Shown piece by piece: positions 4,900 through 64,000 of a stretch of DNA of 64,000 nucleotides. A program made the position numbers and the translations under genes. The stretch's first letter is position 1. Every line of letters begins with the position of its first letter. The notes under the pieces are model-generated. The model saw only the letters and a program-made list of their open reading frames with translations, ran no database searches and was not told where the DNA came from. Source of the stretch: an uncultured bacterium (GTDB lineage: Bacteria > Zhuqueibacterota > QNDG01 > DTFT01); NCBI GenBank assembly GCA_963736115.1, contig CAVTNR010000008.1, forward strand, positions 201,111-265,110. The letters are read 5' to 3'.

Positions 4900-5291
4900 T
4901 TCCCCCCGAGCAGGCGGCGCATCTCGCGCTCCAGCTGTTCGAAGCGGACGGGTTTCGAGAGCAGGGCGTCGGCCTTGACCCATGACCGTTCCTCGTCCGT
5001 GGCCGCGTCGAATTCCATGCCCGTTTCGGCCGTCACGGCCGTCACGAGGATGACCGGAATCGAGGGGTCGGTCTTCTTGATGTGGTACGAAAGCGCGAAC
5101 CCGCCGTCCGTGTGCTCCATCATGAGGTCCACGACGGCGAGGTCGGGTTTCAGTTCGCGGAGCTTCTCCTCGGCCTCCCGCTGGCCGCCCGCGGTGACCA
5201 CCCGGTACCCGGCCCGCTTCAGCATGGTTTCCATCTGAAACAGAAAGTCGGGATCGTCGTCCACCACGAGAATGGTCTGATTTTCAGTCAT
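4896..5291 (-). CDS. Single-domain response regulator (REC)
   Basis: ILVVDDDPD...VVDLMME...VTAV...KPV receiver motifs. Confidence 0.9.
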   Translation of the reverse strand: MTENQTILVVDDDPDFLFQMETMLKRAGYRVVTAGGQREAEEKLRELKPDLAVVDLMMEHTDGGFALSYHIKKTDPSIPVILVTAVTAETGMEFDAATDEERSWVKADALLSKPVRFEQLEREMRRLLGGK

Positions 5292-5342
5292 GCGGTTCCC
5301 TTCGTTATTCATGTCTTGCGCGGCCGGATCGGGCCGTGCCGA

Positions 5343-7403: not shown

Positions 7404-7458
7404 ATCCGTTCACCCTTTCCCCGGGCCGGCCGGATCCGGACGAGCGGCCGGCGGCGGG

Positions 7459-9182: not shown

Positions 9183-9207
9183 GCGTTGGCTCCGTGTTCT
9201 GAGTTTT

Positions 9208-11204: not shown

Positions 11205-11673
11205 CGTTCTTCTCTTCCTCTCGGCGGATCGACCGCAGCAGTTTCCGGGTCCCGTCCGGCGTCATGTTCGCGTGAAACTCCCCGTTGATCGAGATGACCG
11301 GCGCCAGGCCGCATGCGCCGATGCAGGCGACGACTTCCAGGCTGAAGAGCCCGTCCTTGGTGGCGGCGCCGGGTTCGATTTTAAGATCGCGCTTCAGCGC
11401 GTCCAGCACCTTGGCGGATCCCTTCACGTGGCAGGCCGTGCCCCGGCAGACCTGGATGTGGTGCTTTCCGTTCGACTGAAAGCGGAACTGGTTGTAGAAG
11501 GTGGCGACGCCGTAGATCTTGCTCGCGGGAAGCCGCAGATGACGGCCGATGCGGGCCACGGCCTCGCGGGACAGGAAACCCTCGCTCTCCTGGATTTCCT
11601 GGAGCAGGGGGATCAGCTGGTCCCGCCTCGCGTTTTTGTATTTTTCGAGTATGGTCTCGACCGCTGGGCTCAT
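11191..11673 (-). CDS. hydC: NuoE-like 2Fe-2S hydrogenase subunit
   Basis: YGVATFY, VCRGTACH and ACIGACGLAP motifs. Confidence 0.93.
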   Translation of the reverse strand: MSPAVETILEKYKNARRDQLIPLLQEIQESEGFLSREAVARIGRHLRLPASKIYGVATFYNQFRFQSNGKHHIQVCRGTACHVKGSAKVLDALKRDLKIEPGAATKDGLFSLEVVACIGACGLAPVISINGEFHANMTPDGTRKLLRSIRREEEKNDAAN

Positions 11674-12314
11674 CCCGTTTCCTTTCGCTGTCCGGTTTTC
11701 GGACCGGAGAAGTAAACCACTTTTTCGACGGCCATGATCATGTCCCGGTTCTCGACATACACGTCCGGCGGAACGATCAGACGGGTGGGGGCATAGTTCA
11801 GAATGCCGCGGACGCCGCCTTCGACGAAGGCGTCCGTCACGGTCTGGGCCGCTCCCGCGGGCACGCAGAGGATGCCGGTGCGGATGCTCCGGCCGCGGAT
11901 GATTTCGGAGAGCCGGTCAATGGGATAGCAACGGCATCCGTGTATCACGCGTTCCGTCTTTTCCGGGTCCGTATCGAATGCGGCCGTGATCTCCAGGAGA
12001 GTCGATCGTCCCTGAAAGTAGGCGAGTATGGCGCGGCCGATGGAGCCGATGCCCGCGAGAGCCACTTCCCGTTTTTCCCGCGGATCCACGAGCGCGCTGA
12101 TGCTTTGAATCAGCTTGGCTTTGTCGTAACCGCGCGCCGGAGAGCCGGTATAACCGACCTGCATCAGGTCTCGGCGGACCTGGGCGGGCGTGAAACCGGC
12201 CATGCGGCCGAGCTGGTGGGAATAGATACCTGTTTCGTTTTCAGCGGTTGCCTGTAAAAGCAATCCTCTGTACAGAATCAGGCGTTCAATTGTTTTTTCT
12301 GAAATTACGCTCAT
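11670..12314 (-). CDS. rex: Redox-sensing transcriptional repressor Rex
   Basis: ISEKTIERLILY, wHTH QVRRDL...G...GY, Rossmann GIGSIGRA, GILNYAP. Confidence 0.93.
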   Translation of the reverse strand: MSVISEKTIERLILYRGLLLQATAENETGIYSHQLGRMAGFTPAQVRRDLMQVGYTGSPARGYDKAKLIQSISALVDPREKREVALAGIGSIGRAILAYFQGRSTLLEITAAFDTDPEKTERVIHGCRCYPIDRLSEIIRGRSIRTGILCVPAGAAQTVTDAFVEGGVRGILNYAPTRLIVPPDVYVENRDMIMAVEKVVYFSGPKTGQRKETG

Positions 12315-48539: not shown

Positions 48540-48688
48540 CCTGAACATGTCAGAAAATATTTAAAAAAATCATAGTTTCACTTTAAATGAAGACAAACAG
48601 AAAAAACAGTCCAAAAAACATGATTCACCCGACACAGATCTCCAATGAGCTGATATGAAGTTGCCCTTTAGCCCAACAGATTTAACGC

Positions 48689-48717
48689 TTGACATTTAAC
48701 GCAATCCGTTATAACTT
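48689..48717 (+). promoter_or_regulatory. higBA promoter with embedded palindromic operator
   Basis: TTGACA-17 bp-TAACTT, with TAACG-N5-CGTTA (48697-48711) in the spacer. Confidence 0.68.
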
Positions 48718-48722
48718 TCACT

Positions 48723-49004
48723 ATGATAAAATCATTTAAATCAAAAGAAGCTGAAAAGGTATTTTATCGGATTTATTCAACTAACTATTCAAAAGAAATT
48801 AATGAATTAACATTCAGAAAGTTGAGGATGTTAAATAGAGCTAATATAATCAATGATTTACTTGTGCCTCCGGGCAATAAATTGGAAAAATTAAAAGGAG
48901 ATAGAAAAGGTCAATATAGTATCAGGATCAATGATCAATATAGAATTTGTTTTAAATGGACAGGACAAGATGCAATCAATGTGGAAATAGTCGATTATCA
49001 TTAG
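48723..49004 (+). CDS. higB: HigB (RelE/ParE family) toxin
   Basis: MIKSFK...PPGNKLEKLKGDRKGQYSIRINDQYRICF...IVDYH; toxin-first order. Confidence 0.93.
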   Translation: MIKSFKSKEAEKVFYRIYSTNYSKEINELTFRKLRMLNRANIINDLLVPPGNKLEKLKGDRKGQYSIRINDQYRICFKWTGQDAINVEIVDYH

Positions 49005-49016
49005 GAGAAATCTATT

Positions 49017-49319
49017 ATGAATAAAAAAATTCCACCGATACATCCTGGTGAAATCCTGAATGAAGAATTTTTAAAACCATTGAGTTTGAGCCAGAACCGT
49101 TTGGCGATCGAAATTCGCGTTCCCGCAAGACGGATCAATGAAATTGTTCTCAAGAAACGGGGCATTTCACCTGATACCGCTTTAAGACTTGCGAAATTTT
49201 TCAATATGTCCCCTCAATTCTGGCTCGGGTTACAAATGGATTATGATTTGGACATTGCTGCAGATGAAGTATCAGATAAGATACAAAAAGAAGTTAACGA
49301 ATATAAGAAAGCCGGTTAA
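49017..49319 (+). CDS. higA: HigA antitoxin (HTH)
   Basis: PIHPGEILNEEFL, RINEIV, DTALRLAKFF, FWLGLQ. Confidence 0.94.
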   Translation: MNKKIPPIHPGEILNEEFLKPLSLSQNRLAIEIRVPARRINEIVLKKRGISPDTALRLAKFFNMSPQFWLGLQMDYDLDIAADEVSDKIQKEVNEYKKAG

Positions 49320-49771
49320 ACTCACGCTGGATAACCCAATCATTCTCGGGACGATGTCCTACTCAGGTTTGGCTTTTTATGTATCCATAAACTATAATGT
49401 TTCAGTCCCTCCAGAAATGACCCAATTCGTAAAGACCATTCCTATCTGCCGCTTCCAATCCCTTCCTCTTCAGATTGCACCCCCCATTCAACCATACACT
49501 CGGCATCATATTCAAAATCACCCTGAATATTCCCGGAAAAATCCGCATGACAATATAAAGTATATGGAAATCCCCGGGAAAAGCATCTTATAAATATAAC
49601 ATTCTTCATAATTAAACGCCTTGTCATGATCCAGCCCTGAGGCGGTACACTTTATCATCGCCAGTCGGGGATACCGTTTTTCCGCAGGGTTAGCAAGACC
49701 CTGCGATACGGGATCGACTGAAGATCGTTCCAGAAATCAATGCTTTGAACCATCCAGTATGGGGAGGGCGT

Positions 49772-52700
49772 ATGTCTTTCATACTGAAAGCGGGAAATAC
49801 TCATTATAATAGTTGTTCGACAACGTGGTGCTTCCTCGCGGTTTGGATACTGGCGGTAAGCGGCCGGGTAGCGGCGCAGTCAGAACCGGAAATTCAGATC
49901 ACGCGTATGGAGGCTTCGGGTTCGTACCGTGTCGATTCCGGTGCCATCCTCAAAAAAGAAGCAGCCGGTCAGTCCGAAATCAAGCCGCAAATGCGGTCGG
50001 GACGCAGAATCGTTCCTGTCCTGGACCTGAAACAACGCAAGCTGATCCGGATGGATACACTTCCCGAACCGGCCCGGATGAGACCCGAACCCCGAGTTAC
50101 CGCCGAAACAACGGCCCGAACCTGGACCACGGTCATGACCGAGGATTTCGAGGGCGAATGGCCTTCCGCGGGATGGGCACGGGGCGGGGACAAGCATTCA
50201 AACGGCGCGGAAATCACATGGGCACCCTGGGCCTACCATCCTGCGAGCGGAATGAAAAGCTGCTTCGCGCAGGGAACGGTGGTTGATCCTTCGAGCCAGT
50301 ACACCATCAAAGCGACTTGGGGCGAATTCATCGTATCGGACATGTGGTACGGCCCGATCAACCTCGAGGGAGTCACCGACGCCAGGATCATATTCAAGTT
50401 GTCGTACGAGTTGGGGAAATACATGGACATCATCGGCTGGGCCGCTTTCTCCGCCTCGGACACGTCCTCAGTGCTTTATGTCACCGGATATCCCGGAGGG
50501 GACGTCACCAATTGGCCCGATTATGACACTTACACGTACAATTTCAACACGGATCCGTATTACGGAAGCCTCTGCGGTCTGCGGGATGTTTATTTTCTTT
50601 TCACCTATCTGGCGGACGATTACCAGGACTATAACAAGGCGGCTTTTGTCGATGACGTCCGGCTGGAGATCAGCATGGATCCCCTTCCGCAGTTGTCCCT
50701 GGACATCAGCGAATGGTCCGTGCCGTCGGTCGGCGGCACGAGCGAAACCGTGCATGTGACCAGTTCGGACGAAACACTCGGTTATACGGTTTCGGATGAC
50801 GCGTTCTGGCTGACCTTGTCCGAATCGGGCGGTACGACACCGGGCGGTTTTACCATGACAACCGATGCCAACCAGACCGGACTGACGCGTAAGGCCAAGG
50901 TGACAGTAACCGCGGCGCCGCACGAAGCCGCGTCCGCCTCGCCCGCGATACTCAACGTGACGCAGATATCCACATCCGACTCGGGTTGGACCACGCTCAT
51001 GACCGAGGATTTTGAAGGCGAATGGCCGTCCGAAGGCTGGACCCTCGATTCAAACACACTCGACGAGGACGGCGGCCCGATCACATGGGATTCCGAAAAA
51101 TTTTTTAACGCCTGGGGAACCAGGAGCGCCCATCCGCACGGGTCTTCAATCGATCCCAGGGTCGATTATTCGGTCACCGCGGCCAGCGGGACGACTATTA
51201 CGTCGAGTATGCGTTATGGGCCTTTCAGCCTGCCGGAGTATTGCGATGCCCGGTTCCGGTTCAGAATGACCTATCAACTGGCCAAAGGAGATACATTGCG
51301 ATGGGGTGTCTCAGCAGGCGATCCCGATACAGCGGCTATCTTCCTGGTGGGGCTTACCAGAGTGAATTGTTTCCCCCAATGGTGGGTGGACACTTTCGAT
51401 CTGACCCGGGTTCCGTTTTACGGCAATCTGTGCGGAAGATCGGATGTCTATATTCATTTCCTTTATATCGCCGACGATATACAGGATAGAAACGAAGCCG
51501 CCTATATCGACGACATCTATCTTCAGGTCAGACCGTTTAAAGACCGGTTGATCCTGGACGCGGGCGAGTGGGAGGCTCCTCCGGCCGGAGGCGTCAGTGG
51601 AGCCATTCACGTGAACAGCACCGGGGAGGCGTTTCAATACGGGGTTCAGGCCAATACCGGCTGGTTGAGGGTGTCCTACCCCTGGTGGGGGATGACGCCC
51701 GGCGAATTTTTCCTGTCCGCGTTTGCCAATAATACGGGTTCGGCGCGAACAGCCGAGGTGAGGGTCTGGGCCACTATGCCGGAGGGGATCGCCGGTTCAC
51801 CCGCGACGATCATGGTCACACAGGGTCCGATACTGCCTCCGCGGATGTCCCTGAGCGACAGCACATGGTCCGCTCCGCCTGCGGGCGGGAAGAGCGATAC
51901 AATGCACGTCAGCAGTTCCGGGGGAACGGTTCTCTACACCGTGTCAGACGGCGCGGACTGGCTGACCCTGTCCGATTTCAATGGAACCACGCCGGGCGGG
52001 TTCACCCTGACCGCGGCTGCCAATGACGCGGACTCGGCGCGCACGGCCGCAGTGACGGTCAGGGCGGTTATTCCAGCGGAAGCGGCCGGTTCGCCCGCGA
52101 CGATCACGGTCACGCAGCCGAAGGCTCCGGTTCCCGCGAGCATCGGGCCGATCGCGCCGTCCGTGGTCATGCCGGGCGAGGAATTCCAGGTGGACATCCA
52201 TATCGGGGATCCGGTTGCCGTGAATGATCTCTTCAACATCCGGTTCGACCTGACGTTTTCGAACACATCGTATGTGGACTATGCGGCTGCGGAACCCGGT
52301 CCTTTTTTTGGAACAGACGCGGAACTCCTGCCGGTCTCTGATGATGCAGCCGGAAAAGTCAGCGTGGCCATATCCCGCAAACTGTCATCGGGAGGCGTCA
52401 GCGGCGCGGGAGTCGCGGTTTGCATCCGATTCCGCACGCTTCAGGACGCGCCTGAAAACGCGCGCGTGGATTTCACCCTTTCCGGCATCACGGCGGAAGA
52501 TGAGGCCGGGAATCCGGTTTCATTCACGGCATCCGGGAACGCGGCCACGGTGATGACGCATGTCGGAGACGGCGGGGATGCGGCTTCCAATCCGATTCCC
52601 GCGGCCTTCGAACTCTTCCAGAACTTTCCGAATCCATTCAACCCGGTGACGGAGATCCGGTTCGGCCTGCCCCATGCGGGGGAGGCGGAGCTGACGGTTT

Positions 52701-52864
52701 TTGACGGATCCGGCCGGGTCGTGGCAATCCTGTTCGAAGGATTCCGGCAGGCCGGATACCACTCCCTAATGTTCGACGCGTCAAAACTGCCGAGCGGTTC
52801 CTATACCTGCAGATTGCAGGCAGGAAGCCGCGTACTGACGCGGAAAATGGTGCTGGTCAAGTAG
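49772..52864 (+). CDS. Secreted multidomain protein: two jelly-roll-like repeats, three BACON-like domains, cohesin-like domain, C-terminal sorting domain
   Basis: Duplicated WTT(V/L)MTEDFEGEWPS(A/E)GW...(F/Y)(V/I)DD; three W-L-x-(L/V)-S...N...R(K/T)A-x-V BACON-like units; cohesin-like EFQVDI...FDLTF...GVSGAG; FQNFPNPFNP...RKMVLVK. Confidence 0.78.
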   Translation: MSFILKAGNTHYNSCSTTWCFLAVWILAVSGRVAAQSEPEIQITRMEASGSYRVDSGAILKKEAAGQSEIKPQMRSGRRIVPVLDLKQRKLIRMDTLPEPARMRPEPRVTAETTARTWTTVMTEDFEGEWPSAGWARGGDKHSNGAEITWAPWAYHPASGMKSCFAQGTVVDPSSQYTIKATWGEFIVSDMWYGPINLEGVTDARIIFKLSYELGKYMDIIGWAAFSASDTSSVLYVTGYPGGDVTNWPDYDTYTYNFNTDPYYGSLCGLRDVYFLFTYLADDYQDYNKAAFVDDVRLEISMDPLPQLSLDISEWSVPSVGGTSETVHVTSSDETLGYTVSDDAFWLTLSESGGTTPGGFTMTTDANQTGLTRKAKVTVTAAPHEAASASPAILNVTQISTSDSGWTTLMTEDFEGEWPSEGWTLDSNTLDEDGGPITWDSEKFFNAWGTRSAHPHGSSIDPRVDYSVTAASGTTITSSMRYGPFSLPEYCDARFRFRMTYQLAKGDTLRWGVSAGDPDTAAIFLVGLTRVNCFPQWWVDTFDLTRVPFYGNLCGRSDVYIHFLYIADDIQDRNEAAYIDDIYLQVRPFKDRLILDAGEWEAPPAGGVSGAIHVNSTGEAFQYGVQANTGWLRVSYPWWGMTPGEFFLSAFANNTGSARTAEVRVWATMPEGIAGSPATIMVTQGPILPPRMSLSDSTWSAPPAGGKSDTMHVSSSGGTVLYTVSDGADWLTLSDFNGTTPGGFTLTAAANDADSARTAAVTVRAVIPAEAAGSPATITVTQPKAPVPASIGPIAPSVVMPGEEFQVDIHIGDPVAVNDLFNIRFDLTFSNTSYVDYAAAEPGPFFGTDAELLPVSDDAAGKVSVAISRKLSSGGVSGAGVAVCIRFRTLQDAPENARVDFTLSGITAEDEAGNPVSFTASGNAATVMTHVGDGGDAASNPIPAAFELFQNFPNPFNPVTEIRFGLPHAGEAELTVFDGSGRVVAILFEGFRQAGYHSLMFDASKLPSGSYTCRLQAGSRVLTRKMVLVK

Positions 52865-53048: not shown

Positions 53049-53336
53049 ATGTCCGCTGACAAGAAGCAGAATAAACCGAGAAAAGAAGATCGGGTCTGGC
53101 CCTATACCCGCGTGAACGCCTATCTTGCCCTGGCCGCCATGGCCACTCTGATCGCCGGGTATGTGGCGCTCGGCGTCAAGCCCTGGAACAGCTGGGTATC
53201 GCTGAATGTGGCGCCCATTCTCCTGGTGATCGGGTACTGCGTCCTCGTTCCTGCCGCGATCATCTACCATAAACGGGAACCGAAACCCGCCAAACCGTCG
53301 GCACAGTCTCAGGCCGAGGCGCCAAAAGCGGGGTGA
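53049..53336 (+). CDS. Small 2-TM membrane protein (DUF3098-like)
   Basis: NAY...LIAGYVAL...SLNVAPILLVIGY...PAAI. Confidence 0.75.
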   Translation: MSADKKQNKPRKEDRVWPYTRVNAYLALAAMATLIAGYVALGVKPWNSWVSLNVAPILLVIGYCVLVPAAIIYHKREPKPAKPSAQSQAEAPKAG

Positions 53337-53460: not shown

Positions 53461-53535
53461 GGGCGATTAGCTCAGCTGGTTCAGAGCACTTGCCTTACAA
53501 GCAAGGGGTCACTGGTTCGAACCCAGTATCGCCCA
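53461..53535 (+). tRNA. tRNA-Val (TAC)
   Basis: GGGCGAT...ATCGCCC-A; anticodon arm CTTGC-CT-TAC-AA-GCAAG. Confidence 0.96.
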
Positions 53536-53676
53536 CGACACTCGGGTTCGTCATTCCTCAGGGCCGGGAGAATGACTGCCCTTTTTTATTATCTTCGAAC
53601 GGACCCGGCGGGAAATGAGCCGGCGGCTTGTGCCGCAGGACAGGGGCTCCGGTTTGCGTCGGAAAACGGATGACGG

Positions 53677-53974
53677 ATGTTCGATGATCTGAAAATGAAA
53701 GACCTGCCGATCCGTAATCCCGATCACGCTTCGCGGGAAGCGGATCAGGGCTGGACGGTTCTGGTGAACCTCGACAGCGCCGCCTCGGTCGCCTTGAACG
53801 AGACGGGCATGCTGTTATGGAACGCGGTCAACGGGTCCGCCACGATCGGCGGAAATCATCGATGCGGCCAAAGGTCATTTTGAGGACGCCCCGGCCGGCG
53901 CAGGGGATGACATGCTGGCTGTTCTGGAAACCCTGCGGGCCGCAGGCCTCATCGGCTTCGAGGTGAAAACATGA
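53677..53974 (+). CDS. PqqD-family RiPP recognition element 1 (frameshift near 53848)
   Basis: RNPD..SRE...VLVNLD...ALNETGMLLWNAVNG, then in the shifted frame AEIIDAAKGHFEDAP...DMLAVLETLRAAGLIG; the stop overlaps the next ATG. Confidence 0.8.
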
Positions 53975-54246
53975 AGCGCTATTCGGTCAATCCCGTGGTT
54001 TCTCTGAGAGAGGAGCCGGAAGGCGGTCTGCTGTACAACCCGGATACGGACGAAGTGGTACTCATCAACGAGACGGGCCGGATGATCTGGGGGACACTCG
54101 ACATGCCCCGCACCGCAGCGGAAATCGCCGCGGTCGTCGAGGCGGAAACCCTGGACGGGGAAAACGTCGCCGAAGATGTCGTTTCCTTCCTCGAATCCCT
54201 GCTTCCGGACTTCGTGACCCGGCATGGCGAACCCGCAGATTCCTGA
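53971..54246 (+). CDS. scmD: PqqD-family RiPP recognition element 2 (ScmD-like)
   Basis: NPVVSLREE..GGLLYNPDTD...INETGRMIW...DVVSFLESL. Confidence 0.82.
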   Translation: MKRYSVNPVVSLREEPEGGLLYNPDTDEVVLINETGRMIWGTLDMPRTAAEIAAVVEAETLDGENVAEDVVSFLESLLPDFVTRHGEPADS

Positions 54247-55356
54247 AAAAATCAGCAGGACTTTTCCCTCAGCGCCCGAGGAAATCGACGTCAGCCTGAC
54301 GGGAAAGTGCAACCTGGCCTGCAGATACTGCTTCTACGCGGACGAAATGGCCGCGCTGGACGATCTGCCGGGCCAACGCTGGATGGATTTTTTCGCGGAA
54401 GCGGGCGGCATCGGCGTTCAGCGTCTCACCCTCTCCGGAGGCGAGGTCTTCACCCGGCCGGATCTGTTCGTCCTCATCGACAGCCTCATCGAAAACCGGA
54501 TGCGGTACAGCATCCTCACCAACGGCACGCTAATCGATCAGAAAATCATCGCCGCATTTAACGTGGGGAAGCGACGCCTGCGTCTGGATTCGATTCAGGT
54601 CTCCATCGACGGTTCTACAGCGGCCGTTCACGACGCCAGCCGTCCGCCGGCCAGTTTCGACCGCGCCCTGCGGGGACTGCGCCTTCTGAAGGCCGAGGGA
54701 TTCCCGGTGACGGTGCGGGTCACCATCAACCGGCACAATGTCCACGATCTGTCGGCCATCGCGCGGCTTCTGCTGGACGACATCGGGCTGCGATCCTTCG
54801 GCACCAACAGCGCGGACCGGTTCGGCTCGGCCCGGTGTTACGGCCAGGACGTGGTCCTGAATCCGGAGGAATGGGATTCGGCTGTCCGTACCCTGAAGGA
54901 ACTGCTGAAACAATATCCGGGCCGCATCAACGCTTCGGCCGGACCGCTCGCGTTCGCGGAGGATATGGAACGGATAGAGAAAGCCATGGCTGAGGGCCTG
55001 ACCGGGTTTGCCGGGAAGGGGACGGCTCTCCGCCTGCGGCGGTGTTTTCAGCAAAATGGCCGTGCTCCATGACGGTTCCATGACGCCCTGCAACCTGCTA
55101 CCCGGCCTGGTCATGGGGAAAATCGGAGAAACGCCCCTTCAGGAGGCCTGGCTGTCACGGCCGCGCCATCCAGGAAATGCGCGAGCGGTATGAAACTCCG
55201 ATCACATCCATCCCCGGTTGTGAGGATTGCCGCTTCTCCGGATTCTGCACCGGCGGGTGCCCGGCCGTGGTATATGCTCAAAACGGCACGCTTCACGCCG
55301 TTGATCTGGAGCACTGCTGTCGCAACTATTTAGAGGGCCGGAATGACCCTGTGTGA
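54224..55356 (+). CDS. scmE: Radical SAM/SPASM enzyme, SynChlorMet ScmE-like (frameshifts near 55015 and 55160)
   Basis: CNLACRYC, SGGE, IQVSIDG, RINASAGPLA; SPASM CGG...DGSMTPC and CEDC...FCTGGC...C in shifted frames. Confidence 0.8.
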
Positions 55357-56512
55357 ACCCCTCATACCGCCCGAACCGCAGTCCGGTTCTCCGCAGCGGC
55401 TTCCCGATGGAGTGCCTCTTCTGCGCTCGTTCTACCTCTACCTGACCTCGGGATGCAATCTCGCCTGCCGCCACTGCTGGGTCAAACCGCGTTTCATCGA
55501 CGGCAGGCCCGACCCCCAGGAGTGCATCGACCCGGAGCGCCTATTCGCGGCGGTCACGGAGGCCAAGACGCTGGGGCTCACCCATGCGAAACTCACCGGA
55601 GGGGAGCCGCTGTTCCACCCCCGCTTCAGGGACATTGCAGCGGGACTGTCGGCGCAGGGAATCGAGATGGACATGGAGACCAACGGCGTTCTCCTGACTC
55701 CCGAACTGGCGTCGTTCATGAAGAACGAGACGAGAATCGGCTTCGTTTCATTGAGCCTGGACGACGATGATCCGGAGTCTCATGACGCTTTCCGCGGCGT
55801 CAAGGGAGCGTTCGACGCGACCCTCCGGGCGCTCGACGCGCTCCGGACGGCCGGGTATCGGAACACGCAGGTGATCATGAGCGTCCACAGGGGGAATGTC
55901 GGGAAAATGGAAGGTGTCGTCAGGCTGGCAGAGGCGCACGGAGCATCGAGCGTCAAGTTCAATCCTGTCACGGATTCAGGCCGGGGCAGGCAGATGACAG
56001 AACGCGGCGAAACGTTCGGAATACCGGAACTGCTGGATCTGGAAAAATTCGTTTACGGCCCGCTGAAGGAAAAAACCGCGATCAGGCGGCTGATTCTCAA
56101 TATCCCGCCGGCCCTTCGGTCTTTCCCGATTCTGATGGAAACGGGCGGATGCACGGGAGATTGCGGAGTGATCGGCATTCTCGGCATTCTGGGAACCGGA
56201 GAAATCGCAATGTGCGGCATCGGCCAGACCGTCCCTTCCCTGGTGTATGGCAGGCTTGGAGACCGTATCACCGATATCTGGCTCAAACACCCGAAGCTTC
56301 AGGCGCTCAGACGGGAGTTGGAAGACACGCGCCATTACCCCGGAATCTGCGGCGACTGCCTCATGGCCGCATCCTGCAGGACAGGCTGTGTCGCCAACAA
56401 TTACACGGAAGGCAGAGGCATGGTACGGTCCGGAAAGTTGTGCCGGGAGGCCGCGGATATGGGGCTCTTTCCCGCGCACCGCAGGAAGAGCTGGGAAAAG
56501 GATAAGGCCTGA
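55343..56512 (+). CDS. scmF: Radical SAM/SPASM enzyme, SynChlorMet ScmF-like
   Basis: YLYLTSGCNLACRHCW, KLTGGEP, SVKFNPV, CGVIGILGILGTGEIAMCGIG, CGDC...CRTGC...C. Confidence 0.85.
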   Translation: MTLCEPLIPPEPQSGSPQRLPDGVPLLRSFYLYLTSGCNLACRHCWVKPRFIDGRPDPQECIDPERLFAAVTEAKTLGLTHAKLTGGEPLFHPRFRDIAAGLSAQGIEMDMETNGVLLTPELASFMKNETRIGFVSLSLDDDDPESHDAFRGVKGAFDATLRALDALRTAGYRNTQVIMSVHRGNVGKMEGVVRLAEAHGASSVKFNPVTDSGRGRQMTERGETFGIPELLDLEKFVYGPLKEKTAIRRLILNIPPALRSFPILMETGGCTGDCGVIGILGILGTGEIAMCGIGQTVPSLVYGRLGDRITDIWLKHPKLQALRRELEDTRHYPGICGDCLMAASCRTGCVANNYTEGRGMVRSGKLCREAADMGLFPAHRRKSWEKDKA

Positions 56513-56521
56513 GAGGCGCGG

Positions 56522-57871
56522 ATGCATCCCTCCTATAAACTGACACTGGCGGACGGCTTCAGCCTGCAGATCACGGCGGAAGACGTGGATGCGGCGCCAG
56601 CGGTTGAAGCGCTGGCCAAGGCCATGCGGCTCGGGCCGGGCACGGCTGAAAACGTTCTGCGTGTCGTGACCGGAGAGACGGAAGCGCTCTATTCCGTTGA
56701 TTCGGGAGGGACGGTCTGCCGTATCCTCCGGTCGAAAAGCCGTGAAGAGGACGCTGTCCGGGCGCTTCAGATCAGCCTTGTCATTGCCCACATGGCGCAG
56801 AAGCGGGGCGGAATTCTGGTGCACGGCGGGCTGGCGGAATTTCATGGACAGGGGGTCATTCTGGCCGCCACGAGCGGCACGGGTAAAACGACCGCTTCGA
56901 AGCGCCTGACCGCGCCCTGGCGGTCGCTTTCAGACGATGCAGTATTGATCGTACGGAAAGGTGATCATATTTATTATGGCCATCCCTGGCCGACGTGGAG
57001 CCTCTTTTTCCCCGGAGGCCCGGGCGGTTCCTGGAATACAGAATGCGGCATCCCGCTGAAATCACTGCATTTCCTCTTTCAGTCCCCGGAAGACGCTCTG
57101 GCCCCGCTGAATTCCACGCAGGCCGCGGCCATGCTCCTGGAGTCCGCGGAACAGGCGAATGCCGCATTCGACAGGGATCAGTCCTCGGCCGATCTCCACC
57201 GGAATCACCTGGATCAATTTGCTGTCGTCTGCGCGATGACGGAAAGTCTTCCGGCATTCAGGTTGTCTTTGACCCTGAACGGAAATTTCTGGTCACTTCT
57301 TGAAGAATCATTGCGACGGCAGGCGGAACCGGTTCCGCCCTTTTCGGCGGGGAGGAGTCCGGGCGCAGCGTTTGACCCGGTCAAATTCATCGCGCCCGGC
57401 GTCGTCATTGCCGGCAACAGCATGGCCCCGACACTGGTTCCGCCGGGATATGTCGAAGTGCGGCCATATCAAAATGAAAAACCCTGTCGCGGCGATGTCG
57501 TTCATTTTTACTCGCCGGCACACGGGGCAATGGTGACCCATCGCGTGATGGAGGTGCGGCCCGAAGGGCTTGTCACGCGCGGAGACAACAACCTGAATAA
57601 CGACCCGGATTGCGTCCCTCATTCCGCGGTGGACGGTCAGGTGGTGGCGGTCCAGAGACATCCGGGGCAGCCGCTCTGTTCGCGGTGGTCCTGCCGGGAT
57701 GAGGGACTATGCATACGCGAGATTGTCCAATCAGATCCGGATGAACATGGATCGAATGATGCGCCGGCTTCCATTTCTGCGTTTCCGGCGGATGTACTGT
57801 TCAGATCTTTACCCGAAACGCAAGGATTTGAAAATCGTATTGTTCGGCCATCCGTCGCAGCAGCCATCTGA
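56522..57871 (+). CDS. scmC: ScmC-like HPr-kinase-type P-loop protein fused to an S24/S26 (signal peptidase-like) domain; 3' end probably frameshifted, true stop possibly near 58030
   Basis: VHGG, ATSGTGKTT, LSDD, HPWPTWS (ScmC-like); then GNSMAPTL, GDVVHF, THRV, TRGDNN (S26 Ser/His motifs). Confidence 0.75.
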   Translation: MHPSYKLTLADGFSLQITAEDVDAAPAVEALAKAMRLGPGTAENVLRVVTGETEALYSVDSGGTVCRILRSKSREEDAVRALQISLVIAHMAQKRGGILVHGGLAEFHGQGVILAATSGTGKTTASKRLTAPWRSLSDDAVLIVRKGDHIYYGHPWPTWSLFFPGGPGGSWNTECGIPLKSLHFLFQSPEDALAPLNSTQAAAMLLESAEQANAAFDRDQSSADLHRNHLDQFAVVCAMTESLPAFRLSLTLNGNFWSLLEESLRRQAEPVPPFSAGRSPGAAFDPVKFIAPGVVIAGNSMAPTLVPPGYVEVRPYQNEKPCRGDVVHFYSPAHGAMVTHRVMEVRPEGLVTRGDNNLNNDPDCVPHSAVDGQVVAVQRHPGQPLCSRWSCRDEGLCIREIVQSDPDEHGSNDAPASISAFPADVLFRSLPETQGFENRIVRPSVAAAI

Positions 57872-58090
57872 AGATCATGACGGGCCGAATCTGCGTGGGT
57901 TGTTATGAGCAGGGCGATTGGCGTATGGTGTATCCCCGGCGGTTTTGGATCGATCGAAGCAGACTCAGACAGGGCGGTCAGGCAGATGGAATTGAGAAAA
58001 GAGCAATGGATGATTCAGTCATTGACTGAACGGAACGGGAAATAATGAAAGCGGTTTGATCGAACTGTCAGCGGAATCCGGAATCGATCA

Positions 58091-58336
58091 TCATGCGTAT
58101 GAACCGGTACTGCATTTACCGCCGGGGGTGTTTCCAGGTTCACATTTAGTGCCAGCAGAATTCCCTGTTGCTGAACATTTGTTGAGGGCACCCGTGCCAT
58201 TAGCAGTACATTGATTGATGGAGCCGCCGCCGGTGTCCTGTGCGCCGCTGGAGCATAAACTGTAGGCCTGTTTTGAACTGCTCAGGCGAATGGCCGCAGG
58301 TTTGATGTATTTCTTTTTATTATTATTTTCCAGCAT
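58091..58336 (-). CDS. Putative RiPP precursor peptide (81 aa; leader plus five Cys-x2/3-Gly repeats)
   Basis: KKKYIKPAAIRL leader, then CSSG, CTANG, CSATG, CEPG, CSTG; convergent on the radical SAM cassette. Confidence 0.72.
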   Translation of the reverse strand: MLENNNKKKYIKPAAIRLSSSKQAYSLCSSGAQDTGGGSINQCTANGTGALNKCSATGNSAGTKCEPGNTPGGKCSTGSYA

Positions 58337-58637
58337 CAGTTCAGTCACTTTTATGAATGTTATATTCCAGCGTAAATAAAGTAAATCTCAATATTTTGAA
58401 TATTTAGAACAACCCGAGTCATGCTTGTGAGGTTGTCAATTTTTCTATCTTAGGATAAATTACTATTTTCCAGATTAAAAGTCAAGCAAAATTTCTGTCC
58501 TTAATTTTCTGCTAAATTATTAATTAATATACTCTTGTCGAATTTCAATGGGTTTGAATCGTTTAATTACTCCTCGGGGCTCCAAGTCCTATGTGCATAA
58601 ATTGTACCATCCTTTTTGAGGCAGGAGGCTCTTCGAG

Positions 58638-59561
58638 ATGATCAATGAAGGAGAAATCATGGAGCCCGGATGGATCGCGTACAACGAACTGGCCTGGACC
58701 GAAGACCTGCTGGCGGGTCCGGAGGAATGCGAGGACCAGGTCCGGTTTTTCATCGACCGGATTCTGGCCGCTTCGGAGAAACCGCCTGTCACGCTTCTGC
58801 ATCTGGGAAGCGGCGCGGGAAATCATGACATCCATTTCAAGGAGCATTTCAAGGTCACGGGCGTGGACATCAGCCGCGGCATGCTCGAAAAGGCCCGCGT
58901 CCTGCATCCGGATATCGAGTACATCGAAGGCGACATGCGGACGATCCGCCTGAACCGGACCTTCGACGCTGTGGCTGTTCCGGACAGCATCGACTACATG
59001 GCGACCGAGGACGATCTCAGGCAGGCCGTGCGGACCGCTGCGGAGCATCTCAAGCCGGGCGGCGTGCTTCTCGTGGCGGCCAAGCCGGCTGAAACTTTCC
59101 GGGACAACAATTTCGCGTACATCGGAGAGAAAGACGATGTGCACGTGACGGTTCTGGAGAACAATTACATCAACCCGTACAGGCCGGACACTTACGAAGC
59201 GACTCTCGTGTATCTGATCCGCAGCAGAGGCGAGCTGACCATGCGCACGGAACGCCAGATACTCGGGTTGTTTCCCCTGCCAGTTGGGAAAAGGTATTCG
59301 CGGACGAGGGACTCACGATGTCGCAAAACGACCTTGAACGGCGCCTATGACCGCTATCTCCTCAACGACGGGGAGTATGCGATCACGGTCTTTACCGGGA
59401 GTCAAGACCTGATTCAAGGCAGGCGTCTGGTTCAACGCATCCGGAAAGACCGTACGACAGATTATTATAAATTCCGGCGCGGAAAGCCACGGGGCCTTCA
59501 ATGCATTAAGATTAAAATAGATAGGTCCCGTGCCGATTCATCCAAACAGCAATGCCGATAA
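58638..59561 (+). CDS. Class I SAM-dependent methyltransferase (3' part probably frameshifted, true end near 59410)
   Basis: LLHLGSGAG, GVDISRGML, GDMR, FDAV, HLKPGG. Confidence 0.82.
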   Translation: MINEGEIMEPGWIAYNELAWTEDLLAGPEECEDQVRFFIDRILAASEKPPVTLLHLGSGAGNHDIHFKEHFKVTGVDISRGMLEKARVLHPDIEYIEGDMRTIRLNRTFDAVAVPDSIDYMATEDDLRQAVRTAAEHLKPGGVLLVAAKPAETFRDNNFAYIGEKDDVHVTVLENNYINPYRPDTYEATLVYLIRSRGELTMRTERQILGLFPLPVGKRYSRTRDSRCRKTTLNGAYDRYLLNDGEYAITVFTGSQDLIQGRRLVQRIRKDRTTDYYKFRRGKPRGLQCIKIKIDRSRADSSKQQCR

Positions 59562-60161: not shown

Positions 60162-60318
60162 TGGAGAGAGCCATGCGGCGGGTACGGGCTTCCCGCGCAT
60201 GAAAGCCGGTGATTCTTTCTCAGGCCCCGGACAGGAGTTTCCGGAATCCGGAACGCTGATTCCGCTGAAATCACAGGACGATCCGTTGCGTCCGTTCTCC
60301 TGATTGAAAGGAAAAACC

Positions 60319-63300
60319 ATGATTTCCAGATCATCCATTCGAATGCATGTTCTTGGAATGGTCCTGCTCTCGGCGCAGTTAACGGCCCAGAACTATCTTT
60401 CGGGCCGCGTCTACAGCGGGAACAAGCCGGACGAAAGCACGCCCATCGCGAACGTCACCGTCACATTATACGGATCCGCGAATCCGGATGAACTGGGCGC
60501 GCAGATCGGAACCACCACAACCCAGGCGGGGACCGGCTGGTATCAGTTGCTGGCGCCCGAGGGTTATGAGTATTATCATATCGTGGAAACCACGCCGTCC
60601 GGTTATTCTTCCACGGGTGTTTCTTCCGTGGATGGGGACGCAATCAGCAATGACCATATCCGATACTCCATCCTGAGCGAGCCCCTGGCCGATCAAACGC
60701 TCACCGGCAACAAATTCTGGGACAGGCCCTATGCGCCCGACATCGAGGTGCGTTACGGTTCCGTTGTCATACCCGACGGCAGTGCCGCGCCTCAGGTTTC
60801 CAGCGGCACGGATTTCGGGTCCGTGGATGTCGCCTCCGGATCGGTGAGCAGAACCTATACCATTGAAAACATCGGCACCGCGGCCCTGACCGTCACCGGC
60901 GTCACTCTATCCGGGTCGGGTGATTTCACCGTCACGTCACAGCCGGGTTCACCCGTGGCTGCGGGCGCCAGTACGACCTTTGTCGTCCGGTTCGATCCGA
61001 GCGCAGCGGGCCTGCGCTCAGCTACGGTGAATATCGCCAACAATACGGCCAAGAATCCCTATGATTTCGCGATTCAGGGCACGGGCACGACGACCTCCGT
61101 TCTGGTCCCGGAGATCGATGTCAGAGGCAACGGCATTTCCATTGCGGATGGCGATTTGACACCGGGCACGGCGGATGACACGGATATGGGGAGTGTGGAA
61201 ATCGGCGCCGGAGCCGTATCTTCGACGTTTCTCATCCACAACACCGGATCGGCAACGCTCCATATTACGGGTGTGGATGTCAATCCGGACAATTACGGGG
61301 CTGCTGCGTCTTTCGGTATCAAACCCGGATGGTCGGGACCGACTCCTTCAATCGCTCCGGGCAATTCCGTGTCACTGGGCGTCGAATGTTATCCTTTCGC
61401 CGCGGGGACCTATGTCACAACAGTGACCATCAGTAATGACGATGCCGATGAAAATCCCTACACCTTCTGTGTCCAGGGCACGGGGACTGAAACACCTGCG
61501 ACGTCTTATGACTTCGGCGACGCGCCCTATGATCCCTCACAGGGGTGGAACTACCCGACAAGGCTCGCTCAAAATGGGGCGCGTCATGACCACTATAACG
61601 TCGCGGGTGAAGTTCAGTTGGGTGCAAAGGGCTCTGATACGGAGCCCGATGGACAGGCGAATGCCGATGCAACAGGAGATGATGATGACGGTAATGACGA
61701 TGAAGATGGCGTCATCCTGCCGGCGTTTTTCGTCCAGGGTCAGGCCGCCGCACTGACCATTGAAGCAACGGGACAAGATGGAATGATTATGGCACCGGTA
61801 TCCATTCGAGGATGGTTCGACTTCGACCGGAGCGGCACGTGGGAGGATCCCGGTGAGCGATACATCGACGGTTTCCTGAACGGAAAAGCCGCATATTCAG
61901 TCAACGTCCCTCTGAACGCGTCCATCGGGACAAGTTTTGCCCGATTCAGGGTGGGCCTGAATGATAATCCGGCCGGACCGGACGGGTATGGCGGTTACGG
62001 TGAGGTTGAAGATTATCAGATTGAAATCATTGAAGCGCAACGCGATTATGGCGACGCGCCAAGCCCCTACCCGGAAGCCTATCATCTTTTGGGCGGGTCG
62101 TGGCTGGGGGACATGAACGACGCGCCGGATGCCGAAACGGGCATGCAGCGCGACCCTCATGCATTGGGTGACGACAATGACGGTAATGATGATGAGAACG
62201 GCTTTTCCGTGAAAAACGGCTTTTTTGTGAAAAAGAGCGGCGTCTTCAACTTTATATATGTGGATTTGATTCTGGCAAAAACCGGCAACAGCCAAAGTCA
62301 ATGTTGGATCGACTTTAACGGCGATAAAGATTGGGATGATGCAGATGAATATATCGGTTGCTTTGTCTATTCCACCAATACCCCCTTTCTTGTTGCGTGG
62401 TATGGTTATGGTTTTTCTGTACCCGCAAACGCCATCATTGGCAAGACCATGGCGCGTGTCCGCATATCGAACGATCCCCTTGTGGGAATTTGTATGATGT
62501 CCCCTTCAGGTCCAGGCGGTCCCGGAGAAGTTGAAGATTTTGAAATTGAAATCAGAGAAGATGGCCCTGGCTTTCCTTCAGGAGGAATTATTTTCGGTAG
62601 AAAATGGAACGATGCAAACGGGAACGGATCATGGGACGCTAACGAATCGCCGCTTGCGGGATGGACCATTTGGCTCGATTTAAACCATAACGGCATGAAA
62701 GATACCGGAGAGCCCGAGAGCCAAACGGATCCGCAGGGTTACTTTTTCTTCCCGGGTCTGCAGCCCGGCACTTATGATGTGCACGAAGAGCTTGTCGGCA
62801 GCTGGGTGCAGACTTTTCCGGGAAATCCAAATTTTCATACCGTGGATGTCGATCCGAATCAGCCAAGTCTGGCAATTTTATTCGGCAATATAAACAATGG
62901 CACAGCAGGCGAACTTGATTTTGGCGATTTACCCCTTCCCTATTCTCAATTTGAGTGCTTGTCCGTGAATCCAAGTTATAAGATTGGGCAATTAATTGAT
63001 CCGGAGAATTCTGCTCAACCTGATGTCCATGCATTAGGTGACGATCATAATGGAATCGATGATGAGGATGGCGTTTTGTTCTTAACTTCGTTGAAGCCCG
63101 GACAAACTGCTACAGTTCAAATTGATTTGACCGGCGTAAGCCAGAATGTATCCCCCTGGCTGTGGGTCTGGATCGATTTTAATAAAAACTACGACAGGAC
63201 AGACGCGGGTGAAATCGTTTTTTTTCAAACTGTCACAGGAGGTTCAGCGCAAATATTTTCATTTACTGTCCCACTTTCAGCGACCCCGGGAACGACTTTT

Positions 63301-64000
63301 GCCAGATTTTTACTTGTTGACGCTGGCCCTTTGCCGCCAAACGGTTACCCGTTCGGTGAAGTAGAAGATTATGAAATTACCATCGAAACTGGCGAGGATC
63401 AGGAAAAGCCCGTCAAATGGTCCCAGCCGCCGGTTTACGACCTCATGCTGGACGATACGACCTTTTACTGGGGATGGAACGAGACTTCCATTTACTCGCA
63501 GTCCTTTCTTGCGGACGACTGGTTCTGCCATGACCCCAGACCCGTGACCTGTATCCGCTGGTGGGGAGCATACGCGAAATGGGATTCGCTGTTCTCTCCC
63601 CCTGACGCGCCTGCCTCTTTCCAGATCGGCGTGTGGACCGATGTGTCCGATGATTTGGAAACCGGGTTCAGCCATCCGGGTGAAATGGTGCGCGAATGGA
63701 TTGTCAGCCGGCATGCTGTTCAGGAAACGATCGATAAAACATATTATTTCAACGAGTTTATGGAGGCACCGTCACCCTGTTTCCGGTATACATATAATAT
63801 CCCGAAGAATGACTGGTTTTATCAGGAAGGCGATTCCACGGTTTACTGGTTGTCCATCGCTCCGATTTACGATACCCTTCCTGATTCAAACTTCTGGGGC
63901 TGGCTGACAAGGGAGCATTACTTCAATGATGACGCGGTGCGTGTTATGCAGCCTGCCGAGCCGCATCCGGGACATGTGTATGAAAACGGAGCCATGGTCT
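60319..64000 (+). CDS. Large secreted/surface protein (two choice-of-anchor-D/Ig-like units, three GEVED domains, SdrD-B-like domain); runs off the window end
   Basis: Not in the ORF track. The frame is open from ATG 60319 (MISRSSIRMHVLGMVLLSAQLTAQ) to 64000; DFGSV...ENIG...NPYDFAIQGTG units; D(F/Y)GD...GDD...DDE(D/N)G...GEVED(Y/F) three times; WNDANGNGSWDANE. Confidence 0.85.
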   Translation, partial: MISRSSIRMHVLGMVLLSAQLTAQNYLSGRVYSGNKPDESTPIANVTVTLYGSANPDELGAQIGTTTTQAGTGWYQLLAPEGYEYYHIVETTPSGYSSTGVSSVDGDAISNDHIRYSILSEPLADQTLTGNKFWDRPYAPDIEVRYGSVVIPDGSAAPQVSSGTDFGSVDVASGSVSRTYTIENIGTAALTVTGVTLSGSGDFTVTSQPGSPVAAGASTTFVVRFDPSAAGLRSATVNIANNTAKNPYDFAIQGTGTTTSVLVPEIDVRGNGISIADGDLTPGTADDTDMGSVEIGAGAVSSTFLIHNTGSATLHITGVDVNPDNYGAAASFGIKPGWSGPTPSIAPGNSVSLGVECYPFAAGTYVTTVTISNDDADENPYTFCVQGTGTETPATSYDFGDAPYDPSQGWNYPTRLAQNGARHDHYNVAGEVQLGAKGSDTEPDGQANADATGDDDDGNDDEDGVILPAFFVQGQAAALTIEATGQDGMIMAPVSIRGWFDFDRSGTWEDPGERYIDGFLNGKAAYSVNVPLNASIGTSFARFRVGLNDNPAGPDGYGGYGEVEDYQIEIIEAQRDYGDAPSPYPEAYHLLGGSWLGDMNDAPDAETGMQRDPHALGDDNDGNDDENGFSVKNGFFVKKSGVFNFIYVDLILAKTGNSQSQCWIDFNGDKDWDDADEYIGCFVYSTNTPFLVAWYGYGFSVPANAIIGKTMARVRISNDPLVGICMMSPSGPGGPGEVEDFEIEIREDGPGFPSGGIIFGRKWNDANGNGSWDANESPLAGWTIWLDLNHNGMKDTGEPESQTDPQGYFFFPGLQPGTYDVHEELVGSWVQTFPGNPNFHTVDVDPNQPSLAILFGNINNGTAGELDFGDLPLPYSQFECLSVNPSYKIGQLIDPENSAQPDVHALGDDHNGIDDEDGVLFLTSLKPGQTATVQIDLTGVSQNVSPWLWVWIDFNKNYDRTDAGEIVFFQTVTGGSAQIFSFTVPLSATPGTTFARFLLVDAGPLPPNGYPFGEVEDYEITIETGEDQEKPVKWSQPPVYDLMLDDTTFYWGWNETSIYSQSFLADDWFCHDPRPVTCIRWWGAYAKWDSLFSPPDAPASFQIGVWTDVSDDLETGFSHPGEMVREWIVSRHAVQETIDKTYYFNEFMEAPSPCFRYTYNIPKNDWFYQEGDSTVYWLSIAPIYDTLPDSNFWGWLTREHYFNDDAVRVMQPAEPHPGHVYENGAMV

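Follow-up and report, generated by a model that had tools for sequence, protein, structure and literature searches.

An Scm-like peptide-modification cassette with an adjacent candidate substrate gene and a proposed RRE-SPASM-kinase-peptidase pathway

The SynChlorMet (Scm) cassette is a long-standing orphan among radical S-adenosylmethionine (SAM) peptide systems. The family is defined by bioinformatics alone, through the models ScmA (TIGR04252), ScmC (TIGR04249), ScmD (TIGR04248), ScmE (TIGR04250), and ScmF (TIGR04251), and its genes usually stand in the order PqqD, ScmE, ScmF, small Cys/Gly peptide (the precursor), ScmC, S26 peptidase. This text describes a cassette with the same parts, found in a 64-kb stretch of contig CAVTNR010000008.1 from an uncultured bacterium (the window; the source genome is a 3.34-Mb assembly in 31 contigs, 87% complete). 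Judged by its gene content, the identities of its domains, the linkage of precursor to cassette, and the anatomy of leader and repeat, all of which are observed here, the locus is on balance likely to be a SynChlorMet-like cassette for a ribosomally made, post-translationally modified peptide (RiPP), with its substrate gene adjacent and a proposed pathway that runs from a RiPP recognition element (RRE) through SPASM enzymes and a kinase to a peptidase. An earlier, sequence-only reading of this DNA had called the pathway uncharacterised and without a known product. A literature search indeed found neither an experimental paper on the family nor one on an Scm product; that reading had missed, nevertheless, that the precursor of the family already has a model, NCBIfam TIGR04252 ('SCM_precur_ScmA'; 49 positions, cut-off 35 bits).

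Among described systems, the linear polyphosphorylated peptides (LPP; LppA/B/K/S) have been studied experimentally (PMC13381572, Nat Commun 2026). There, the YxxP motif of the leader is essential for binding by the RRE, and the choice between Y and W in the leader decides which RRE binds. An HprK-like kinase puts one to four phosphates on core Ser3, which sits 18 residues after the leader Tyr, and a SipW-like peptidase cuts off the leader of 27 residues, a step that works poorly once the kinase is deleted. Two of the structures concerned are 9x8z, in which LppB holds the LppA leader, and 9x90, a complex of PbaB1 and its lasso leader. According to the same source, no description of such peptidases in RiPP pathways existed before, and HprK-like kinases are tailoring enzymes in paeninodin-type clusters. 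For radical SAM chemistry on repeated Cys motifs, a described example is CrpC, which installs ranthionines on the repeats of CrpA, each carrying C-x-x-Q/D (PMC13692751).

The features of the locus are, in order along the window:

53461-53536, + strand: tRNA-Val (anticodon TAC; ARAGORN), the upstream edge of the cassette, kept in the same place in the same-genus relative L019
53677-53974, + strand: PqqD-like RRE 1 (ScmD-like, 'PqqD1 type'; TIGR04248, Pfam PqqD), with an extra base near 53848
53971-54246, + strand: PqqD-like RRE 2, 91 aa, intact (Pfam PqqD 39.3 bits; TIGR04248 33 bits)
54224-55356, + strand: ScmE-like radical SAM/SPASM enzyme (CNLACRYC; TIGR04250), in three frames, with extra bases near 55002 and 55155
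55343-56512, + strand: ScmF-like radical SAM/SPASM enzyme (CNLACRHC; TIGR04251), 389 aa, intact
56522-58045, + strand: fusion of ScmC with an S26 peptidase and a conserved C-terminal domain (TIGR04249, TIGR02228), with extra bases near 57652, 57861, and 57969
about 56702-57313, + strand: HprK-like P-loop kinase domain (ScmC) of the fusion (TIGR04249; hhalign against HprK)
about 57395-57655, + strand: Sec11/SipW-type S26 peptidase domain of the fusion (TIGR02228; profile match SEC11C)
58091-58336, - strand: precursor peptide gene (ScmA-like), 81 aa, from the list of open reading frames (ORFs), with an ATG start and an alternative GTG at 58348

The layout given by the sequence-only reading, in which a tRNA-Val is followed by packed + strand genes for two PqqD proteins, two radical SAM/SPASM enzymes, and a P-loop-peptidase fusion that converge on a Cys/Gly peptide gene, is correct in every particular. 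The five + strand genes are closely packed from 53677 on, with the TGA stop of PqqD-like 1 overlapping the start of PqqD-like 2 (ATGA) in the ORF list. The peptide gene is convergent with the fusion gene, 45 nt past the stop of the latter, and is followed by an AT-rich spacer (GC 0.365 at 58200-58599). In gene maps of the window and 84 loci, the window is seen to have two PqqE-like SPASM enzymes side by side with a PqqD homologue, ScmC, and a small precursor. Folding of the convergent intergenic stretch (58030-58100) is no better than that of its shuffles (z +1.09).

In an NCBIfam scan, each enzyme of the window has the corresponding SynChlorMet model as its best match, by a wide margin. The ScmF-like enzyme scores 318.8 bits on TIGR04251 (cut-off 400; next family 107 bits), and the three pieces of the ScmE-like enzyme score 247.3, 41.1, and 36.9 bits on TIGR04250 (cut-off 400), spanning profile positions 2-250, 244-296, and 300-352, respectively. 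On TIGR04248 (cut-off 100), PqqD-like 2 reaches the 33 bits listed above and the N-terminal piece of PqqD-like 1 reaches 18.1, with 19.1 bits on Pfam PqqD. Only ScmC passes its threshold, with 150.7 bits over positions 89-292 of TIGR04249 (cut-off 125); the same part scores 23.9 bits on HprK-related kinase A (TIGR04352) and 21.3 bits on Pfam Hpr_kinase_C, both below their cut-offs. The peptidase part falls just under the cut-off of the archaeal-type signal peptidase I model (TIGR02228; 45.9 against 51.85 bits). A Pfam scan of the cassette returned PqqD, Radical_SAM twice, SPASM, and weak Hpr_kinase_C and Peptidase_S26 matches. Membership of other maturase families is not supported in the NCBIfam scan, where the PapB, StsB, AlbA, and SkfB models give 52-84 bits against cut-offs of 340-850 and the lasso PqqD models give only 16-21 bits against cut-offs of 70-80. 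Thus, the SynChlorMet identity claimed by the sequence-only reading stands as the best match for every enzyme, while the ScmA, D, E, and F thresholds are not reached.

The evidence that the 81-aa peptide is the substrate comes from comparative genomics. Its sequence, MLENNNKKKYIKPAAIRLSSSKQAYSLCSSGAQDTGGGSINQCTANGTGALNKCSATGNSAGTKCEPGNTPGGKCSTGSYA, has a Y10-x-x-P13 leader and five core Cys at positions 28, 43, 54, 65, and 75, and only one copy of its gene is present in the 3.34-Mb genome. Among 5.8 billion proteins searched directly, it had one relative, whose leader is the same and whose core differs, and a profile search of the same collection gave 32 matches, four of them named 'hypothetical protein' and 28 nameless. 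For wider comparison, an ScmF search returned 229 sequence clusters at E <= 1e-30, and 80 loci were collected with a 50-sequence ScmF alignment from one-genome-per-species contigs; with three relatives and the window, these make 84 loci. The 80 loci span methanogens, syntrophs, sulfate reducers, green sulfur bacteria, anammox bacteria, Chloroflexota, and others. Hidden Markov models (HMMs) of the precursor, built from 39 motif-selected peptides, have a match at E <= 1e-3 in 63 of the 84 loci. Under stricter rules, 73 peptide ORFs are retained. All but one of these (72) have a Scm gene no more than 1.5 kb away, and they cover 61 of the 84 loci; 48 of them, in 44 loci, stand directly downstream of ScmF on the same strand. 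As had been anticipated, YxxP/CxxG peptides therefore do accompany other Scm cassettes.

Closer to the window, the same association is seen. Similar peptides lie beside Scm genes in 5/8 metagenome loci, among them two close relatives with the convergent arrangement of the window, and beside the cassette in three of the four other related genomes that have ScmC above the cut-off, the contig of the fourth being too short. The position varies: the peptide gene is convergent in L019, and in L021 it shares the strand of ScmF and ScmC and lies between the two. L022 has two copies. Close relatives keep the leader K-Y-I-K-P-x-A-x-R-L and differ in their cores. A conserved leader, a hypervariable core, and a position beside the enzymes are together the signature of a RiPP precursor.

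That the small ORF is instead a chance open frame is highly improbable. In favour of chance, the peptide has no match in NCBIfam or Pfam, a scan for sigma-70 promoters and terminators gave counts no higher than in shuffles, and no Shine-Dalgarno sequence was found for the gene. By contrast, the pattern of conserved leader and hypervariable core holds across phyla, the peptide ORFs stand beside Scm genes, and, as a control, the leader HMM has a single match, the peptide of the window, among the 65,847 stop-to-stop ORFs of the whole genome. A point that weighs against the assignment is that no peptide was found in 23 of the 84 loci, about nine of which have ample flanks; in about 14 of the 23, a contig end lies within about 620 bp of the Scm genes. 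Taking both sides together, the adjacent 81-aa gene is firmly assigned, by comparison of sequences, as encoding the substrate of the cassette, and the guess made for it earlier is upheld. The existing ScmA model does not recover this family: on 57 family peptides, 14 score 9.7-25 bits on TIGR04252, none of the 57 reaches 35, and the peptide of the window gives no match. Two family peptides give near-threshold matches to the lasso leader model NF033521.

The 73 peptides share a clear anatomy, in which a P at +3 is universal by construction, as the motif was used for selection. In the leader, Y (93%) or W (5%) comes after a basic stretch, with the P at +3, a hydrophobic residue at +5/+6, and an L at +8 (63%). 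The distance from the aromatic residue to the first Cys is 17-20 positions in 58/73 peptides, and 18 or 19 in 43. Before the first Cys, Gly or Ala is found at -2 in 72% and at -4 in 52%, which fits the P1/P3 pair of a signal peptidase. The core has 2-14 Cys (median 5), with a Cys-Cys spacing of 9-11 in 228 of 299 intervals; Gly occupies Cys+3 in 80% and Ala +6 in 38%, the rest being mostly small residues. The last Cys is followed by 6-8 residues to the end in 48/73 peptides.

Among these loci, W-x-x-P replaces Y-x-x-P in L056, L086, L094, and L103, which come from Chlorobium and Desulfobacterales metagenome-assembled genomes (MAGs). Several related loci have multiple precursors or Scm enzyme sets duplicated in tandem: there are three precursors each in L050, L052, and L083 and two in L111, and two ScmF genes each in L041, L048, L081, and L083. 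One cassette may therefore process several cores.

The peptide of the window shares with SynChlorMet precursors the aromatic-x-x-P leader and the C-x-x-G repeats. The clade to which the window belongs departs from the family in its two PqqD genes, in the fusion of kinase and peptidase, and in a precursor that is convergent and has another leader tail. Across the 84 loci, an S26 peptidase is present in 57 and ScmC in 49. The low model scores are not peculiar to this copy: the ScmF proteins of its relatives L019, L024, L034, L036, and L044 score 323-346 bits on TIGR04251, whereas 11 of 16 other loci tested reach 427-610. The intact orthologs of L019 behave likewise, with 329.7 bits for ScmE against the cut-off of 400 and 41.4 bits on TIGR04248 for PqqD1 (L019:3962-4258) against 100. 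L085 and L086, on the other hand, pass with 567 and 602 bits for ScmE and 133 and 118 bits for ScmD, and the cassettes of L085, L086, L100, and L075 clear every Scm cut-off tested.

A quick maximum-likelihood tree of ScmF (85 rows; support from the Shimodaira-Hasegawa approximate likelihood ratio test, SH-aLRT) separates a canonical half of 42 rows (support 99) from a second half. The window belongs to a 17-row clade of the second half (SH-aLRT 96), sister to cassettes that pass the TIGR04251 cut-off, and its nearest neighbours outside its kin are Smithella, Syntrophorhabdaceae, and related MAGs. Two PqqD genes are present in 13 of the 17 rows of this clade, the other four being truncated contigs. 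On these scores and this tree, the cassette is best classed as Scm-like, in a sister clade that has no model of its own, and not as a strict SynChlorMet member. Two points count against carrying the family label further, namely that the ScmA, D, E, and F thresholds are not reached and that the equivalog definitions are themselves uncharacterised; because of the former, function cannot be transferred from those definitions.

Both radical SAM enzymes have their CxxxCxxC motif starting near residue 30-38. This leaves no room for an N-terminal RRE, and the enzymes must therefore rely on discrete PqqD proteins. The PqqD-like 2 profile has LppB as its best solved match (9x8z chain B; E 3.4e-8), and next in rank are the lasso RREs TbiB1, PbaB1, and TfuB1; PqqD-like 1 likewise matches LppB best (E 4.7e-8) and then lasso RREs. 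In these solved structures, the RREs are in complex with YxxP/WxxP leaders. Lasso systems thus resemble Scm in a Y/W-x-x-P-x-hydrophobic leader and in having RREs that rank next to LppB for the Scm profiles. In contrast to them, this locus has neither a lasso cyclase nor a B2 protease.

The P-loop domain and the peptidase had been guessed to be a kinase and a leader protease, respectively, and both guesses gain support from profile comparison and from the LPP analogue (PMC13381572). An alignment of 25 ScmC sequences was compared by hhalign with one of 11 genuine HprK sequences from this genome and relatives (338-374 bits on TIGR00679). The two match with a probability of 92.4% (E 5e-7) over 86 columns, and the motifs H-G...G-x-G-V...G-x-x-G-x-G-K-[ST] are in register, as is a D-D motif that aligns with the invariant D175-D176 of HprK. 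For the peptidase, the profile matches are SEC11C (5e-15) and SEC11A (9e-14), with bacterial signal peptidases only at about 1e-5, and the Ser, His, and Asp motifs are kept (G-x-S-M, H-R, and G-D-x-N-x-x-x-D). Intact fusion orthologs are 508-512 aa long. Scm-linked peptidases, fused or free, also have in common a conserved domain at the C-terminus, about 100 residues long, in which [IV]-G-[RK]-Y...W...P-[FW]-R-L comes after a basic stretch and for which no family match was found.

An RRE, an HprK-like kinase, a peptidase of the SipW/Sec11 type, and a YxxP leader are therefore common to LPP and Scm; this link of the Scm PqqD, kinase, peptidase, and YxxP module to LPP is new. In LPP, Ser3 comes 18 residues after Tyr, and in Scm precursors 18 is also the modal spacing between Tyr and the first Cys. 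The two systems differ in that LPP has an NTP transferase, an MsbA-type pump, and non-Cys cores, is without radical SAM enzymes, and occurs mostly in Bacillota (PMC13381572), whereas Scm adds two SPASM enzymes and a Cys-repeat core. Neither an NTP transferase nor an MsbA-type exporter was found between 53300 and 59600 in the ORF list, NCBIfam, or Pfam; thus, the window shares the LPP module and is not an LPP cluster.

By analogy with LPP, RRE binding, phosphorylation, and the cleavage site can be sketched as follows. One or both discrete PqqD-type RREs would bind the K-rich Y-x-x-P-x-hydrophobic leader (Y10...P13), which is of the motif class bound by lasso and LPP RREs; each of the two might serve one radical SAM enzyme, as the sequence-only reading supposed. 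After modification of the core, the HprK-like ScmC domain would use ATP to phosphorylate the peptide near the leader-core junction, and the fused Sec11/SipW-type peptidase, with its Ser-His pair, would remove the leader. In the peptide of the window, the triplet A24-Y25-S26 suggests, by the same analogy, a cut after S26, two residues before the first Cys.

It is possible, but doubtful, that ScmC is not a peptide kinase at all and serves as an ATP-dependent scaffold or chaperone, or acts on another substrate, with leader removal independent of phosphorylation. Such a role would agree with the confinement of the HprK similarity to the nucleotide-binding core of 86 columns and with the lack of an assigned family, in the NCBIfam scan, for about the first 90 residues of ScmC and for its C-terminal half. 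Moreover, no core Ser/Thr position among the 73 peptides is conserved enough to be named as a phosphorylation site. The short alignment and the missing site also weigh against the phosphorylation step as such. Against the scaffold role, however, the P-loop and the DD motif are both conserved, a Ser or Thr lies within six residues of the first Cys in 71/73 precursors, and LPP supplies a precedent in which an RRE, an HprK-like kinase, and a SipW-like peptidase work as one module, with phosphorylation first and cleavage after it (PMC13381572). A peptide kinase thus remains the preferred assignment for ScmC.

The chemistry of the two radical SAM enzymes, drawn by analogy from other SPASM maturases, is the weakest step of the pathway. 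All of 50 ScmF homologues keep C38/C42/C45 as well as seven C-terminal Cys. The nearest solved structure to ScmF is PqqE, at just 106 bits, and its solved relatives, none above that score, comprise PqqE, anSME, BlsE, and thioether formers. Thioether formation is the commonest fate of the Cys-repeat substrates of SPASM enzymes. The thioether-forming maturases (CrpC/CrpA, and the PapB and CteB types) resemble Scm in having three Fe-S cluster motifs and a leader with a repeated Cys motif, and CrpA has, like the Scm precursors, a Cys with a partner three residues on. They differ in that the Scm partner is Gly, which offers only its C-alpha, in that the RRE is discrete and not fused, and in that there are two enzymes and not one; furthermore, the PapB model gives 52 bits on a window enzyme against a cut-off of 340. 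Two radical SAM enzymes acting on one peptide family are also reported for the sactipeptide systems of thuricin CD and ruminococcin C, although their enzyme families and precursors are different.

By these analogies, the radical SAM products are probably Cys thioethers. The RRE would present the core to ScmE and ScmF, both without an RRE of their own, and these would modify the Cys of the ~10-residue C-x-x-G repeats. The most likely outcome is that each Cys closes a small thioether ring of its own, possibly onto the C-alpha of the Gly at +3. A single small ring in every repeat is what the conservation of that Gly, and the shortness of the tail beyond the last Cys, suggest.

Some considerations tell against thioethers, nevertheless. 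SPASM enzymes catalyse many reactions, and nothing in the data separates thioether formation from other SPASM chemistry. Epimerisation, C-C crosslinks, or Cys oxidation, or Cys that stay free to bind a metal or an Fe-S cluster, would be compatible with the nearest solved relatives of ScmF, which include PqqE (C-C bond), anSME (Cys/Ser oxidation), and BlsE, with the second-ranking NCBIfam matches of the radical SAM enzymes (heme b synthase and mycofactocin maturase), and with the absence, besides Cys and Gly, of a conserved repeat residue as an obvious acceptor. Such alternatives are nonetheless rather unlikely, as Cys is the sole invariant, periodic residue, a short ring that closes on the downstream side of every Cys would fit the 6-8 residues retained beyond the last one, and the studied Cys-repeat substrates of SPASM enzymes receive thioethers, for instance from CrpC on CrpA (PMC13692751).

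The sequence-only reading had also called the pathway potentially complete. The full gene set is indeed present; its completeness is uncertain because six frameshifts break three of the five enzyme genes. In comparison with the cassettes of two same-genus relatives (L019 of G002 and L020 of G001; 82% and 81% nucleotide identity), the window has six single extra bases, near 53848, 55002, 55155, 57652, 57861, and 57969. PqqD1 has one of them, ScmE has two, and the remaining three fall in the 3' part of the fusion gene. PqqD-like 2, ScmF, and the precursor are intact. These six sites fully account for the frame changes of the ORF list, which the alignment thus establishes as real features of this sequence, as had been noted. 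None of the insertions is in a long homopolymer, and no common sequence motif was seen by eye at the six sites. There is no uncompensated deletion, a deletion-insertion pair at 57785/57812 (27 nt apart, in a poorly conserved stretch) cancelling itself, and no internal stop occurs in 1,464 frame-corrected codons. Read in the frame of the relatives, the first four genes have an amino-acid identity of 0.83-0.87 to G002 and the fusion one of 0.55, and dN/dS on the window's branch (0.04-0.31) does not exceed that on the branches of the relatives (0.13-0.49). Unbroken orthologs are present in L019 and in the metagenome contigs L111, L112, and L117 (73-77% ScmF identity). The metagenome scan found no same-species copy, its best ScmF identity being 77%.

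The six +1 insertions are likely to be consensus errors of the assembly and not recent decay, an explanation favoured because the damage is local, one-directional, and without other signs of decay. The alternative is that the cassette was recently inactivated, so that PqqD1, ScmE, and the ScmC-peptidase are not made and this organism has no product. It is the less probable of the two, although it has the localisation on its side: the frame-breaking changes are confined to the 4.4-kb cassette and avoid long homopolymers, while nine long window ORFs, about 22.7 kb together, are unbroken and none of 39 other window ORFs looks split, those of the 39 with family matches (RecA, AlaRS, DnaX, CinA) fitting their profiles nearly end to end. 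Uniform sequencing error leaves this localisation unexplained, whereas real inactivation would explain it; here, the evidence counts against the error explanation. In addition, ScmC family matches above the cut-off occur in only 5/61 related genomes, which implies that the cassette is dispensable. Natural decay, however, would not be expected to give +1 insertions at all six sites, with the only deletion offset by a seventh insertion 27 nt away. Also against decay, no codon has a nonsense change, dN/dS is as low as in relatives, and the precursor, ScmF, and the cassettes of relatives are intact. No explanation covers both the +1 direction and the localisation of the insertions.

Other genes of the window are described here for their own sake. 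The order small membrane ORF, tRNA, cassette, peptide, methyltransferase is common to the window and L019. The methyltransferase (58638-59561, + strand) and the small membrane ORF (53049-53336) were considered as parts of the cassette and rejected because they are conserved only within the genus, in the same-genus relative; beside other Scm cassettes, the 84 loci give just two weak, distant methyltransferase matches. The methyltransferase itself is of the Methyltransf_25 type, resembles the daptide RiPP methyltransferase weakly (40 bits, where the cut-off is 175), and diverges from the precursor gene across the AT-rich spacer 58349-58637 (GC about 0.37).

Upstream, 49745-52864 (+ strand) encodes a 1039-aa protein with BACON domains and a type IX secretion system (T9SS) C-terminal sorting domain, whose halves look like internal duplicates, and a low-GC stretch (0.31-0.40, 48600-49400) lies ahead of it. 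The T9SS tail and BACON domains suggest a Bacteroidota-like host, whereas the nearest ScmF sequences are from Thermodesulfobacteriota MAGs; set against each other, these affiliations hint at lateral transfer. Downstream, 60304-63999 (+ strand, running past the window end) encodes more than 1232 aa with GEVED, DUF7901, SdrD_B-like, and DUF1573 domains, probably a large surface protein. At 8628-12314 (- strand), an 858-aa fusion joins Nuo51-type FMN-binding, 2Fe-2S, and NADH-G-type Fe-S domains, and after it come a thioredoxin-like 2Fe-2S ferredoxin and then a regulator of the Rex-like kind (CoA_binding and Put_DNA-bind_N), a set that fits an anaerobic NADH-linked redox complex. Finally, 5082-7697 (+) and 5343-7403 (-) are overlapping open frames of 871 and 686 aa, the + frame giving no match in a Pfam scan.

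Taken as a whole, the locus is a genuine RiPP cassette whose kind is known, though untouched by experiment, and this copy is either mis-assembled or freshly broken. As a tentative and speculative extension, Scm and Scm-like systems may form a new RiPP class, present mainly in genomes of anaerobic groups, in which a lasso/LPP-type module for recognition, phosphorylation, and SipW cleavage is joined to two SPASM enzymes. These would form one Cys-S to Gly-C-alpha thioether (i to i+3) per ~10-residue repeat, giving 2 to 14 minimal rings, and phosphorylation would gate leader removal. For the family, the gains are a general recogniser of precursors, which covers the peptides that the ScmA model misses (0/57 pass), and an anatomy of those precursors that consists of a leader motif, a leader of fixed length, a C-x-x-G unit of 10 residues, and a predicted site of cleavage. 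To these is added a mechanistic bridge to LPP that predicts roles for ScmC and the peptidase, and with it the orphan pathway is now directly testable.

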